From an uncultured Phycisphaerales bacterium (GTDB lineage: Bacteria; Planctomycetota; Phycisphaerae; Tepidisphaerales; Tepidisphaeraceae): 64,000 nt of DNA. Each line of letters begins with the position of its first letter. Position 1 is the stretch's first letter. Below are positions 51,128 through 55,630 of the stretch, piece after piece. Where the stretch lies: contig CAVWLP010000002.1 of assembly GCA_963755915.1 (NCBI GenBank), forward strand, positions 96,001-160,000. Direction: 5' to 3'. The notes under the pieces were generated by a model. It did not search any database. It saw only the letters and a list, made by a program, of their open reading frames with translations, and was not told the DNA's origin. The position numbers were made by a program, and so were the translations under genes.

Positions 51128-52171
51128 TTGGCGACTGACATGGGGTCACGCGCTTGGACAACCGCCCTGCTGCTGGCGTGGATTTGCCTTCCACGTCCGG
51201 CCATTTCGCAAACGCCCTACGCCCCCGCCCCAGGCCCCTTTTCGGTCAAAACAGAAGCGCTCAACTGGCACGACGCCCAGCGCAACCGCGACGTCCCCGT
51301 GCGGATCTATTATCCCGATTCCCCCCAAGGCAAATTCCCCATCATCATCTTCTCCCACGGCGTGGGCGGCTCGCGCGACGGCTACGCCTACCTCGGCGAA
51401 TTCTGGGCCGGCTTCGGTTATGTCTGCGTCCACGTCCAGCACGTCGGCTCCGACACCTCCATCTGGCAGGACCTCCCAGCCGATGAAATTTCTGCCGCCA
51501 TGCGGCGAGCGACCGTCAGCCCCCGCAACATTCGCAACCGGCCGCTGGACGTCAGCTTCGCCATCGACCAACTCACAAATCTCAACCAGACCGATCCAAT
51601 TTTCAAGGATCGCCTCGATCTCGATCGCATCGGCGTCGCCGGTCACTCCTTCGGCGCCTTCACCACGCTCGCCGTCGCCGGCGAGGTCTTCACCACTTCG
51701 CGCGGCACAAAATTGATGTGGCCGGATTCGCGCGTGAAAGCCGCCATCGCCATGAGCGAATCACCCCCACCCGACCCGTCCACCTGGGACGACGCCTTCC
51801 CCCACATCGCCATTCCCATGATGCACATGACCGGCACAATCGACGACAACCCCTTCGGCGACTCCAAGGCCGCCGTTCGTCGCGTGCCATTCGACCATAT
51901 CCCACCAGTCGCCGACCAATACCTGATCATCCTCCAGGGCGGCGACCACATGGTCTTTTCGGGCCGTACCCAGCAGGGCGAGCCAATGTCCGGCACCGGC
52001 AACCCCGCCCTCGACCCCACGTTTCAGGTCCTGATCCAGCAATCGACAACCGCGTTCTGGGATGCCTATCTGAAATCCGACGCCAGGGCCCAGGACTGGT
52101 TGCAAACCGGCGGATGCAAACAAATGCTGGGCGCGAACGCGGCATTTGAGATGCATCCGAAGAAGGGGTGA
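51128..52171 (+). CDS. Secreted alpha/beta hydrolase
   Basis: Signal peptide, IIFSHGVGG, GHSFG nucleophile elbow, TGTID, GDHMVF. Confidence 0.88.
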   Translation: MATDMGSRAWTTALLLAWICLPRPAISQTPYAPAPGPFSVKTEALNWHDAQRNRDVPVRIYYPDSPQGKFPIIIFSHGVGGSRDGYAYLGEFWAGFGYVCVHVQHVGSDTSIWQDLPADEISAAMRRATVSPRNIRNRPLDVSFAIDQLTNLNQTDPIFKDRLDLDRIGVAGHSFGAFTTLAVAGEVFTTSRGTKLMWPDSRVKAAIAMSESPPPDPSTWDDAFPHIAIPMMHMTGTIDDNPFGDSKAAVRRVPFDHIPPVADQYLIILQGGDHMVFSGRTQQGEPMSGTGNPALDPTFQVLIQQSTTAFWDAYLKSDARAQDWLQTGGCKQMLGANAAFEMHPKKG

Positions 52172-52222
52172 ATGGATCGGCGGAATTTTCGATGGTGTCA
52201 TTGTCTGAGATTCCGGCCACCT

Positions 52223-52498
52223 CTATTTCGCAAACCAGCCCTTTTTCCTATTCTGAGCCGGCTTCCAATTCCGATGCGCGTGCCGCCATGCTTCTTCGCT
52301 TTCATACGAGATAACGAGTTTGATTTTGTCCATAGGAATGGTCGTCGTAGTACCGACAAGCCATTCACGATTCTCAATGGTTAACGTTTTCCCACGAATG
52401 CACGGCAGGCCAAAAAACTCAACCCGCTTAGCTTCCGTTATGACCCAGTGCTCGTTCGCCAAACCGACAATGTGAAAAGAATTTATCTCTTTGGCCAT
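52223..52498 (-). CDS. Small hypothetical protein
   Basis: 91-aa ORF with TGGTAAAAT extended -10 lying 6 nt before the ATG. Confidence 0.55.
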   Translation of the reverse strand: MAKEINSFHIVGLANEHWVITEAKRVEFFGLPCIRGKTLTIENREWLVGTTTTIPMDKIKLVISYESEEAWRHAHRNWKPAQNRKKGWFAK

Positions 52499-52669
52499 GG
52501 TTGGATTTTACCATCCGCGCCCGTGTGCGGATGGCTGACGGAAGAAATCGAAACCCTGCGCCATAAACTGCGGGAACCAATCACCCGCAGTCCCCTCGGA
52601 GATTCGCCTTGGACGGTTAGATGGCATGTTGGTTGTCGGGCTAGCCACCGTCGACTAAACCCGACAACC

Positions 52670-53809
52670 ATGAAACACAATTCTTCTAAAGGTAGCCGCA
52701 AGGCCTCCCAAGTTCGAGGGGAGAGAGTCTCGAAGCCCAATCAGTCGCACGAGGTGATCAAACTCGGCGTGGATACCCACAGCCAGCAATATACCTTCGC
52801 ACGGATGGTCGATCATCAGGGGATTCAACCGGCCCAAAAACTCTCGCCGGCCGTCTTCATCGAGTTTCTCAAAAAGCAGCTGACGCTGGCCAAACGCGTG
52901 GTGATGGTCTACGAAGCCGGTCCCTACGGCTTCGCGTTGCACCGCGAAGCCACCGCCCTGGGCGTAGAGTGCCTGGTCTGTGCCCCCGAACGTCTGTCCC
53001 GCGGCCGCAAGAGAGTCAACGACAAGATCGACGCCACCGAACTGCTCTCGCGTCTGGACCGGCATCTCGCCGGCAACACGACGGCGCTGCGTCTGGTGCG
53101 TGTCCCCACGGTGGCCCAGGAGATCCACCGCCGCCTGGGGCGCGAGCGCAACACCTACCGAAAGGAACGGCAGCGCTGGATCGCCCGTGGACGAAGCCTG
53201 CTGCACAGCCTCGGCATCCATCGCCCGGGAAAATGGTGGGAGCCGCTGGCGTGTGAGCCGCTGCTGAAAAAGCTGGAAGAACTCTACGGCTCAGAACTGA
53301 TCGAACCGATCCGCAAGGAGCTTGCCCGCGACCTGGAGATGGTAGAGATGATGGACCAGAAGCGAGATGAACTGACCCGCCAGCTCTGCGCGGAGGCCAA
53401 GTCCCGCGAATCGGCCCGGATCAAGGGAATCGGACACCTCAGCTATGAGCTGCTGGATCGTGAGATCGTCGACTGGAATCGCTTCCAGAACCGCCGGCAG
53501 ATCGCCAGCTACACCGGGCTTTGCCCTGGAGAATCCTCCTCAGGCCAGAGCCGGATGAATCTGTCGATCGACAAACATGGCAACCGCCGACTGCGCACGG
53601 TGCTGGTGGAACTGGCGTGGCTGCTGCCCAAGTTCCAGCCGGAGTATTTTCGTCTGAAGCGCTGGAAGCAGGTCTTCGAGAACCCCGGAGCCAGAGCCAT
53701 GCGCAAGAAAGCCGCGGTGGCCTTGGCGCGGCAACTGGCGGTGGACCTGTGGCGGATCAAAACCGGCCGGGTCAAAGCGCAGGATCTGGGCTTGAAACTG
53801 GCAGCGTAA
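52670..53809 (+). CDS. IS110-family DEDD transposase/recombinase
   Basis: LGVDTH, VYEAGPYG and NDKIDA (RuvC-like DEDD); IKGIG, YTGLCPGESSSG (catalytic Ser), KHGNRRLR, VALARQL. Confidence 0.93.
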   Translation: MKHNSSKGSRKASQVRGERVSKPNQSHEVIKLGVDTHSQQYTFARMVDHQGIQPAQKLSPAVFIEFLKKQLTLAKRVVMVYEAGPYGFALHREATALGVECLVCAPERLSRGRKRVNDKIDATELLSRLDRHLAGNTTALRLVRVPTVAQEIHRRLGRERNTYRKERQRWIARGRSLLHSLGIHRPGKWWEPLACEPLLKKLEELYGSELIEPIRKELARDLEMVEMMDQKRDELTRQLCAEAKSRESARIKGIGHLSYELLDREIVDWNRFQNRRQIASYTGLCPGESSSGQSRMNLSIDKHGNRRLRTVLVELAWLLPKFQPEYFRLKRWKQVFENPGARAMRKKAAVALARQLAVDLWRIKTGRVKAQDLGLKLAA

Positions 53810-54137
53810 AAAGCCGGCCAAGGTTGTCCCCGAACTTCTGGAGCCTGGATGGACGACGGATAAAGAGCTTGGAATAAAAGTGAAAGAGACGAGCCACGGT
53901 GTAACGCGCCCGTTTTCCCCTATGAGCGCCCTTGAGCGTTCGGCGGTTAGATTGGGTCAGCGTGAACCGCCTGCAACGGACGTATTAGACCATGGTGTAC
54001 TGGCAAACCGCCAGGTACGGATAGCAGGAAGAGCGTTGCCGCAATGATGGCAACAGCCCATGCAGAGCGGACACTGACAGGCCGAGCAACAGCTTAAAAA
54101 GACAAAAGAATAAAGGCGGCGAATGCGGCCCACACTT
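53810..54137 (+). ncRNA. Candidate bridge/seek RNA region of the IS110 element
   Basis: Non-coding, with several stem-loops (GGCGGTT/AACCGCC, CTGGC/GCCAG, GTTGCC/GGCAAC) and copies of the junction sequences. Position matches IS1111-group guide RNAs. Confidence 0.55.
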
Positions 54138-54184
54138 GACAACCAACATAGCAGGGGAAGGGAAAGAGGGTGGAGGGGGTGCGG

Positions 54185-54234
54185 GGGAGGCGGCGAAAAC
54201 CGCTTGGGGCCTTATGGGGTTGTCGCCGCCTCCC
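54185..54234. repeat. GC-rich inverted repeat next to the IS110 right end
   Basis: GGGAGGCGGCGA...TCGCCGCCTCCC, a perfect 12-bp stem. Confidence 0.65.
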
Positions 54235-54310
54235 TGCATTACATTTGAATTTCTCTCTAAAGAGGAACACGGCCGCCTCGTCACCATGACGAAAATCGCA
54301 GCGACCGTTT

Positions 54311-54396
54311 CGTCATTCGGTCATTCGGATTTGATTCCCTTCGGGTCTGAGCATCAGGGTCGAAGACTGGTTTCTGGTTTCGGATTTCTGGTTTCC
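54311..54396. repeat. Heptamer-based repeat (family B) interrupted by the 29-bp mini-element (54338-54366)
   Basis: GTCATTCGGTCATTCGGATTTGATTC-[insert]-TGGTTTCTGGTTTCGGATTTCTGGTTTC; similar to 56088-56144. Confidence 0.7.
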
Positions 54397-54439
54397 GCAC
54401 TCGGCCGCTAAACTCCCGCTAACCGGAGGAATGCCCGCC

Positions 54440-55630
54440 ATGCCCAAAGACGCCATCAACATCTGCCTCATCGGCCAGAAATTCATGGGCCGCGCCCACA
54501 GCAACGCCTTCCTCAAAGCCCCCAAATTCTTCGACCTCCCCGCCGACCCCGTCATGCACACCGTCGCCGCTCAGGATAAATTGGAGCTGGAAAAATTCGC
54601 CAAAAAATGGGGCTGGCAACACGCCTCGACCGATTGGCGCCAAGCGATCGCCGATCCCGAAATCCAGCTCGTCGACATCACCGCCCAGAACCACATGCAC
54701 CGCGAGATGGCCCTGGCCGCCCTCGAAGCCGGCAAGCACGTCGCCTGCGAAAAACCCCTTGCCGGCAGTCTCGACGACGCCCGCAAAATGCGCGACGCCG
54801 CCAGAAAATATAAGAAATCCAAAACCTCCGTCTGGTGGAGCTACCGCCGCACCCCTGCCGTCGCACTGGCGTATCAGCTCGCCCGCGCCGGGAAAATCGG
54901 CCGCATCTATCACGTCCGCGGCTACTACCTCCAGGACTGGGCCGGCCTCGATGTCCCCCTCATCTGGCGCTTCGATAAAAAAATCGCCGGCTCCGGCTCC
55001 CACGGCGACCTCGGCGCTCACATCATCGACATGGCCCGATTCATCACCGGCGAGGAAATCACGGAAATCAACGGCGCGATTACGGAGACATTCGTAAAAG
55101 AACGAACCATCCCCTCCGCCCTTTCCGCAGGCGGAATCGCCGGCGGCGCTAAGGGCGGCGGAAAAAAAGGCAAAGTCGAAGTCGACGACGCCACCCTCTT
55201 CCTCTGCCGATTCTCTGGCGGAGCCGTCGGCAGCATCGAGGCCACCCGCTTCTCCACCGGCTACCAGAACAAGAACGGCGTCGAAGTCCACGGCGAAAAA
55301 GGGGCCATCAGCTTCAACTTCGAAGACATGAACTACCTCAGCTATTTCGACAACACCGCCCCCGCCAAAACGCGCGGCTGGACCAAAATCATGGTCACCC
55401 ACGCCCCCGATCACCCCTACGCCCACGCCTGGTGGCCCGATGCGCATATCATTGGCTATGAGCACACCTTCATCAACCAGGCCGCCGATCTCATGATGGA
55501 CCTCGCCGGAAAAACCCCCACCATCCCCCTTTCCGATTTCGCGGACGCCTATGAAACCCAGCGCGTCCTCGAAGCTGTCATGATCAGCGCGGCCGAAAAA
55601 CGGCCGGTTAAACTTTCGGAGGTCCAGTAG
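54440..55630 (+). CDS. Gfo/Idh/MocA family oxidoreductase
   Basis: IGQKFMGRAHSNA, HVACEKP, YLQDW, GDLGAHIID, HIIGYEHTF. Confidence 0.92.
   Translation: MPKDAINICLIGQKFMGRAHSNAFLKAPKFFDLPADPVMHTVAAQDKLELEKFAKKWGWQHASTDWRQAIADPEIQLVDITAQNHMHREMALAALEAGKHVACEKPLAGSLDDARKMRDAARKYKKSKTSVWWSYRRTPAVALAYQLARAGKIGRIYHVRGYYLQDWAGLDVPLIWRFDKKIAGSGSHGDLGAHIIDMARFITGEEITEINGAITETFVKERTIPSALSAGGIAGGAKGGGKKGKVEVDDATLFLCRFSGGAVGSIEATRFSTGYQNKNGVEVHGEKGAISFNFEDMNYLSYFDNTAPAKTRGWTKIMVTHAPDHPYAHAWWPDAHIIGYEHTFINQAADLMMDLAGKTPTIPLSDFADAYETQRVLEAVMISAAEKRPVKLSEVQ

Follow-up and report, generated by a model that had tools for sequence, protein, structure and literature searches.

The mechanism by which insertion sequences of the IS110 family are directed by a bridge or seek RNA was described in 2024 (PMC11187229; PMC11208160). 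In the seekRNAs of the IS1111 group, the segment that matches the top strand is reported to lie 5' of the one for the bottom strand, with an overlap of both in the target (PMC11187229). For IS621, handshake guides have been described that, once strands have been exchanged, base-pair with the partner DNA (PMC11208158). Here, we analyze an IS1111-type element at 52621-54152 of a stretch of 64,000 nucleotides from an uncultured Phycisphaerales bacterium (the window; all features given with window coordinates lie on its forward strand). An earlier note on this one copy had proposed that the 3' non-coding end of the element encodes a guide RNA of the bridge/seek type. This proposal is supported by a covarying structure and by guides that track flanks and element ends in homologues. 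We put at about 0.9 the probability that the locus is an intact, recently active IS1111-group element of the IS110 family, most likely guided by an RNA from its own 3' non-coding region (53892-54057).

Element limits and insertion site

The genome carries six copies of the element, with bodies that are 100% identical, and each copy sits at the same site of a repeated extragenic element. Unoccupied copies of this repeat read ...GGACGGTT-AG-GGGAAG..., and the 12-mer CGGTTAGGGGAA (CGGTT-AG-GGGAA) occurs 12 times in the genome, every time in an empty repeat copy. Comparison of empty with occupied sites shows that the duplicated core is AG alone and not TAG. The element therefore extends from 52621 to 54152, between the AG copies at 52619-52620 and 54153-54154, and measures 1532 bp plus one AG core. 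The earlier statement that TAG is present at both junctions is literally true, but the right end had been misplaced, with the right-hand TAG lying inside the element. Two predictions made from that end do not hold. The predicted target ...GGACGGT-TAG-CAGGGG... has 0 matches in the genome and is 3 nt off, the target being ...CGGTT-AG-GGGAA..., and the predicted circle junction ...CAACATAG-ATGGCATG... is also 3 nt off and lacks CAG.

The flanks that the six copies have in common are short. On the left, they comprise only GGACGGTT-AG, of which GGACGGTT (52605-52618) is the left half of the target; on the right, they comprise exactly the 5 nt after the core (GGGAA). Two copies, L001 (G000:C2:1812306-1813858) and L004 (G000:C2:1386075-1387626), are inverted and share an identical left flank of 121 nt (about 217 nt are similar), while their right flanks differ. 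This pattern suggests a duplicated flank or an exchange between copies of the insertion sequence, and because of the common 121 nt the independent insertions may number five rather than six. A soil DNA run holds a 98.8% identical copy, in which the flanks are shared from 52603 to exactly 54159 (GGGAA) and diverge beyond, consistent with a right flank of 5 nt that is read by a guide strand described below. On the evidence of these sequences, the element is real and appears to have been active recently. Searching the genome contigs with the single protein returned 2 loci only, and none of the 400 other genomes searched across the phylum contained a match at E 1e-40.

The target repeat family gives 29 BLAST high-scoring segment pairs in the genome, one at window positions 54155-54265 and 28 at other places. 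The window stretch is the right part of the target and begins with GGGAA (54155-54159). The whole repeat is about 110 nt long. Among its features are a G-rich tract, GGGAAGGGAAAGAGGGTGGAGGGGGTGCGGGGG, and an extended hairpin, GGAGGCGGGAGA...TCTCCCGCCTCC, and the combination of its left and right halves differs among genomic places.

The perfect 12-bp sub-terminal inverted repeats that had been noted for this element were found as ATGTTGGTTGTC at 52626-52637 and its antisense match GACAACCAACAT at 54138-54149. They are set in from the core by 5 nt on the left (ATGGC, 52621-52625, the first bases of the element) and by 3 nt on the right (AGC, 54150-54152, its last bases). Non-coding DNA amounts to 49 nt upstream of the transposase gene (52621-52669) and 343 nt downstream of it (53810-54152).

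Guide strands in this copy

We searched the non-coding region for matches to the real empty target and to the circle junction as inferred. For the target, the two top matches each run across the core. One is an 8-nt antisense match at 53915-53922, the T guide UUCCCCUA (DNA TTCCCCTA), which is antisense to T-AG-GGGAA in the top strand of the target. The other is a 7-nt sense match at 53944-53950, the B guide CGGUUAG, which equals left flank plus core (CGGTT-AG, with CGGTT at 52614-52618) and would pair with the bottom strand. In the target, checked on 12 empty sites, the two matches overlap at T-AG. The B guide is followed by a 2-nt tail, AU (53951-53952), which equals the first 2 nt of the element and resembles a handshake guide. 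On the donor side, CCAU (53990-53993) is complementary to ATGG at the left end of the element, and AUAGCAG (54021-54027) repeats the final 5 nt of the element together with the core.

The strings on which the guide proposal had been founded are where they were said to be: CGGTTAGAT at 53944-53952 and 52614-52622, ATAGCAGG at 54021-54028 and 54148-54155, and CCTGC at 53970-53974. Of the three guide segments that had been derived from them, CGGTTAG (with AT) and ATAGCAG are retained as unpaired loop strands, but CCTGC has to be dropped, because it is the 5' strand of a stem (P3, see below) and is conserved whatever the flank. The set was also incomplete, as it lacked the T guide at 53915-53922 and CCAU at 53990-53993. 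Since the tail equals the first 2 nt of the element, the segment CGGTTAGAT was rightly described as a copy of the left junction and not of the intact target.

Taken alone, the junction-like strings are only suggestive. Among 2000 mononucleotide shuffles of the non-coding region, 44 reached a match of at least 9 nt to the left junction, 307 a match of at least 8 nt to the right junction, and 8 both; moreover, unrelated 7-mers also match when non-coding region and junctions are compared.

Guides and flanks in homologues

A protein search found 2355 homologues at E <=1e-20 among 8000 scored candidates. An alignment of 39 homologues served to collect 80 genomic and 80 metagenomic loci, and both element ends were located for 31 of 53 aligned RNAs. 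An automatic search for the longest inverted repeat proved noisy outside the close family and was replaced by searches for conserved end motifs.

Guides and flanks vary in concert among homologues whose transposases are 40-73% identical. The close family (64-73% identity) keeps element ends and RNA scaffold at other insertion sites, and the guides follow. The locus L007, with flanks ...GCAA-AG-GGGTCGG..., has the guides CCGACCCCUU and CAAAGAU. In L097, the flank AG-GGGACATCA goes with the guide UGAUGUCCCCU, and in L098, which differs by one compensating change, the flank AG-GTGACATC goes with the guide UGAUGUCACCU. Between L049 and L124, there are compensating changes at two positions of the T guide and at one of the B guide.

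For the 31 loci with both ends, longest matches were measured without counting the common core: those of the T guide average 6.10 nt to its own right flank and 3.33 nt to the other flanks; for the B guide and the left flanks, the averages are 3.61 and 2.68 nt. None of 5000 permutations reached the observed mean for the T guide and none of 5000 for the B guide, although these figures overstate independence, since relatives share guides and targets by descent. In 21 of the 31 loci, the T guide matches its own flank over at least 6 nt. The tail of the B guide equals the first 2 nt of the element in all 37 loci with a left end (AT in 29, AA in 7, TT in 1). A count of 34 of 34 in this comparison is partly circular, because homologue ends were found by conserved end motifs. 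Outside the set of 37, L020 and L109 are exceptions, with a UU tail and a left end starting with AT. In the comparison of homologue 3' ends that had been recommended as a check, target and donor segments track the flanks or ends, and CCTGC stays constant.

RNA structure and distribution

A structure of 32 pairs was drawn by hand on 11 close sequences, and a covariance model (R1) was built from it. In the 64-kb window, R1 has a single match, a predicted bridge/seek RNA gene of 166 nt at 53892-54057 (146.7 bits) with a paired core at 53897-54041. The RNA is composed of two modules. The target-binding module (53897-53969) is closed by stem P1 (53897-53911 with 53954-53969) and holds hairpin P2 (53924-53929 with 53936-53941); the donor-binding module (53971-54041) is closed by stem P3 (53971-53976 with 54036-54041) and holds hairpin P4 (53997-54004 with 54010-54018). 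All four guide strands are unpaired in this comparative structure. In two sets of related loci, R1 matches were found in 81 of 100 and in 43 of 61, all but one on the transposase strand; those whose position was checked lie downstream of the gene that encodes the transposase.

In 74 distinct sequences, 91.0% of the cells are paired, compared with 67.1% in shuffles, and 28 of the 32 pairs have changed on both sides in a compensatory manner; both figures come from an alignment that was fitted to the model structure and so favours that structure. The stem pairs are preserved by compensatory changes and by G-U pairs, and this on one strand only. Covariation scores 0.617 for this structure; shuffles give 0.219, and slid partners give no more than 0.105. 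It is covariation and not folding energy that supports the structure. In this sense, the earlier description of about 340 nt of structured non-coding DNA stands by covariation, but not by energy, which is like that of shuffles. The minimum-energy fold of the single sequence is unlike the comparative structure, and the remark that part of the first junction match sits in a predicted stem applies to that fold only; in the comparative structure, the segment is unpaired. RNAalifold on a MAFFT alignment of 53 regions recovered 8 pairs only, because indels shift the alignment columns, and was superseded by the hand-drawn structure and the covariance model.

Some homologous elements (L095:2810-2960, L014:1320-1470, L093:3930-4020) carry an additional G/C-rich hairpin block (GGGGAAGGGCGAACCC...GGGTTCGCCCTTCCCC-like) in the non-coding region. 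It sits before or after the guide RNA and looks like a small nested repeat.

Donor side and predicted circle junction

Taking the revised ends, the circle junction is predicted to read ...CAACATAGC-AG-ATGGCATG..., with ...ATAGC-AG-ATGG... around the core. It has 0 matches in the assembly, and the contigs of three metatranscriptomes showed no joint of the circle type; from neither absence do we draw a conclusion. Where 500 nt or more of downstream sequence is available, the loop 7-mer recurs exactly at the right end of the element in 36 of 37 loci with ATAGCAG and in 4 of 4 with ATATTAG; L128 combines the end ATAGG with the loop AUAGGAG. The top-strand donor guide goes with the left end (ATGGC with (A)CCAU, AAGGC with GCCUU, ATGAC with (G/A)UCAU, TTGAC with CUCAA), with mismatches in five loci. 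The bottom-strand donor guide is well supported by its copies at the ends, with one class as an exception (see below); the top-strand guide spans only 4 nt here.

A possible tail of the donor guide that would match the right flank, with ATAGCAGG as a mimic of the right junction, was rejected. The final G of this string, which had been counted as a guide base, is not tied to the right flank in other classes and matches it in the close family because all targets of that family start with G. No matching tail after AUAGCAG was evident in the homologue comparison.

The loci with the loop AUAGGAG (28, a subset of L019-L091, e.g. L080:3611-3799) form a class of their own that is rich in Verrucomicrobia. 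Their left-junction core is AG, and their right junction is mostly CATAG-GG-GTTAGG; exceptions are L063 (GA) and one copy of L079 (AG). Differing donor and target cores or a shorter spacer are possible reasons why loop and element end mostly disagree in this class.

Transposase

The recombinase gene (52670-53809) is one intact open reading frame of 379 amino acids (aa). The earlier assignment as an intact DEDD/Ser recombinase is supported by a family profile, by invariant residues, by the alignment of S291 and by structure comparison with Foldseek. On the NCBIfam profile NF033542 ("IS110 family RNA-guided transposase"), the protein reaches 163.8 bits, above the cut-off of 140, with residues 33-363 aligned to positions 3-337 of 343. 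PF02371 is present with E 8e-16, while PF01548 was not detected in the profile search. Across the 39 homologues, D35, E82, D118, D121 and G292 are invariant and S291 is nearly so. We propose D35, E82, D118, D121 and S291 as catalytic. The D-x-x-D spacing of D118 and D121 is that of D102 and D105 in IS621. In the C-terminal domain, the motif GL-P----SG is represented by G283-L284-x-P286-x4-S291-G292, and a profile search placed S291 on the catalytic serine of IS621 (...YESG...); phmmer with the single protein against the PDB yielded nothing relevant, so that the profile search was needed for this alignment. An AlphaFold model (mean pLDDT 80.5) has IS621 (8wt9, E 2.9e-9) as its best Foldseek match. 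Chains of IS621 and ISCro4 synaptic complexes span E 2.9e-9 to 3.9e-6 and are followed by TIGR-TasR and then by YqgF and RuvC. Plasmid-borne relatives of the transposase reach at best 37% identity.

Other features of the element ends

A hairpin with a 10-bp stem, GGTTGTCGGG / CCCGACAACC (52631-52669), joins the left inverted repeat to the bases right before the start codon and is kept in close homologues. In read-through transcripts, it may mask the ribosome-binding region. The transposase frame is open upstream across the left junction (52448-53809), which gives 453 aa from a GTG in the window, and from stop to stop it spans 435-598 aa at four copies; this probably reflects chance in G+C-rich DNA. 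At the right end, the motif TTGAC(A) (54136-54141), which overlaps the right inverted repeat, is kept in 31 of 32 homologues, even where the repeat differs, and its distance to the right end is fixed, at 11 nt in 22 loci and at 16 nt in 9. The motif might serve as the -35 element of a promoter formed at the circle junction; the hexamer 17 nt past TTGAC across the junction (CATGTT and similar) makes a poor -10.

Discussion

Together, our data suggest a model in which the element is moved by its recombinase with the help of an RNA of two modules, each an internal loop that is closed by a stem and holds a hairpin. In the target loop, the 5' strand UUCCCCUA would pair with T-AG-GGGAA in the top strand, and the 3' strand CGGUUAG would pair with the bottom strand, so that both strands would specify the 12 nt CGGTT-AG-GGGAA and overlap at the AG core. 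Pairing of the tail AU would have to await strand exchange, as with the IS621 handshake guides. CCAU and AUAGCAG in the donor loop would likewise read the two sides of the circle junction ...ATAGC-AG-ATGG..., and recombination between the AG cores would then insert the circle. As the site lies within a repeated extragenic element, the insertion sequence would have many safe landing places. What the analysis shows are the limits of the element, its target, the complementarity of the guides and their covariation with the flanks, the RNA structure and the protein family; that the RNA is made, bound by the recombinase and needed for movement is what we infer.

Several points weigh against this model, besides the common descent of the loci and the partial circularity of one count that have been mentioned above. 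The T guide matches its flank over 4 nt or fewer in 5 of the 31 loci (L031, L043, L095, L108, L142), and guide and flank are offset by one G in several loci (L014, L024, L029). On the donor side, the top-strand guide pairs over only 4 nt in this copy, the base next to it is G, C or U in relatives that share the end, and the loop segment recurs at the element end in only 3 of the 26 loci of the ATAGGAG class. The folding energy is no better than that of shuffles (z = -1.12 for 345 nt and -0.53 for 152 nt), a scan of 52500-54300 gave no sigma-70-like promoter, and a search of 52000-54800 gave no relevant Rfam match at E up to 10. Parts of the element occur in Logan contigs of three metatranscriptomes, and one such contig (226 nt) covers 53787-54010; in the contig cover of the three runs, that of X14 ends at 54010 and 54075-54275 is uncovered. 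The contigs reveal neither strand nor ends and could stem from DNA carry-over, which makes them weak evidence for an RNA.

Some of these points could be turned into a different explanation, namely that the target-binding module alone acts as a short seekRNA, while it is mainly the protein that reads the donor ends, through the 12-bp repeats, and CCAU and AUAGCAG are scaffold or protein-contact bases. An 82-nt seekRNA was reported to suffice for the movement of ISEc11 (PMC11187229), the 4-nt pairing of CCAU with its drifting neighbour and the 3 of 26 end copies in the ATAGGAG class fit such a view, and AUAGCAG could be nearly invariant simply because the ends are nearly invariant. It would leave unexplained why three classes of ends (ATAGC, ATATT and, in L128, ATAGG) each come with the matching loop 7-mer, why changes of the left end are mirrored in the top-strand donor guide (ATGGC with CCAU, AAGGC with GCCUU, ATGAC with UCAU, TTGAC with UCAA), and why both donor strands lie in a loop closed by the covarying P3 and P4. 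We consider it unlikely that the donor loop plays no guiding role.

Far less probable still is that the non-coding block works as DNA, for example through transposase-binding sites near the right end, with the junction strings as relics of past insertions and no RNA guide at all. Direct RNA evidence and a promoter-like site are absent and the folding energy is unremarkable, as this explanation would have it, but compensatory changes and G-U pairs that make sense on one strand only, guides that change with the flanks while the scaffold stays, and a protein from a family that has been shown experimentally to use such RNAs all speak for an RNA. As to mere coincidence, with 8-9-nt identities that mean nothing and a site chosen by protein contacts with the repeat DNA, 7-mers do arise by chance and the 8-mer alone was reached in 307 of the 2000 shuffles. 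Both matches together were reached in 8 only, the 0 of 5000 permutations concern dozens of loci, and the bases common to the six copies on the right are exactly those covered by the guide. Guide-flank covariation and RNA structure already contradict coincidence, to which we give next to no credence.

Returning to the two-module guide RNA, we offer a broader reading only tentatively and with the odds somewhat against it: in this IS1111-type clade, the bottom-strand target guide may carry a 2-nt handshake tail that tracks the left end (AT, AA or TT), and, as RNA and DNA form only 4 pairs on one side of the donor, donor recognition may be shared between the RNA and contacts of the protein with the long sub-terminal repeats. 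If this were true, IS1111-type recombinases would exchange the opposite strand first compared with IS621.

What makes the locus of interest is that it offers a fully delimited IS1111-type bridge/seek RNA system, apparently an active one, in a lineage distant from those studied. With the calibrated covariance model, the RNA is found beside more than 120 related transposase genes, and the natural retargeting series points to the programmable bases, 5-9 nt on each side of the AG core, which should be of use for choosing or engineering new programmable recombinases. It also illustrates that element ends inferred from a single copy can err by a few bases, and that such an error alters all predictions built on them.

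Comparison with known systems

By its anatomy and other testable defining features, the element would be assigned to the IS1111 group; supplementary lists of the 2024 papers may already include relatives. It resembles the IS1111 elements for which seekRNAs were described (ISEc11, ISPa11, ISKpn4; Siddiquee et al. 2024, PMC11187229) in its sub-terminal inverted repeats, which at 12 bp lie within the 7-17 bp of the group, and in the long non-coding region downstream of the transposase gene. Guide order and target overlap are as reported there, and so is natural retargeting, in which stems are conserved and guides are swapped among relatives. The sizes of the modules are comparable as well, with a 73-nt target module and a two-loop core of about 145 nt here and RNAs of 82 and 154 nt there. 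Unlike the IS1111 transposases of 330-350 aa in that account, the present one has 379 aa. The element also differs from those studied in its host lineage and in its target, a G-rich repeated extragenic element, and it is known from sequence alone.

With IS621 and the bridge RNA of the IS110 group (Durrant et al. 2024, PMC11208160), it would share a two-loop RNA with separate target and donor loops and the reading of both strands around a 2-nt core. A 2-nt extension that would match the partner DNA only after exchange likewise has its counterpart in IS621 (Hiraizumi et al. 2024, PMC11208158), and so has the proposed DEDD plus Ser recombinase, whose model is closest to 8wt9 and 8wt6. The RNA is encoded at the right end here and at the left end in IS621, and its strand guides come in the opposite order; as core, there is AG here and CT in IS621; and only the present element has long sub-terminal repeats. 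The tail is attached to the bottom-strand target guide and matches the left end here, whereas the handshake bases of IS621 adjoin the guide that reads the other strand.

The choice of site has a parallel in ISPpu9 and in other IS110-family members whose targets are repeated extragenic palindromic sequences (PMC12288879), with multiple copies that each sit in such a repeat, although the target repeat of ISPpu9, as described there, is unrelated. Taken together, these likenesses and differences make the locus, as judged from its sequence, a well-supported new example of an IS1111-group bridge/seek RNA rather than a new mechanism.

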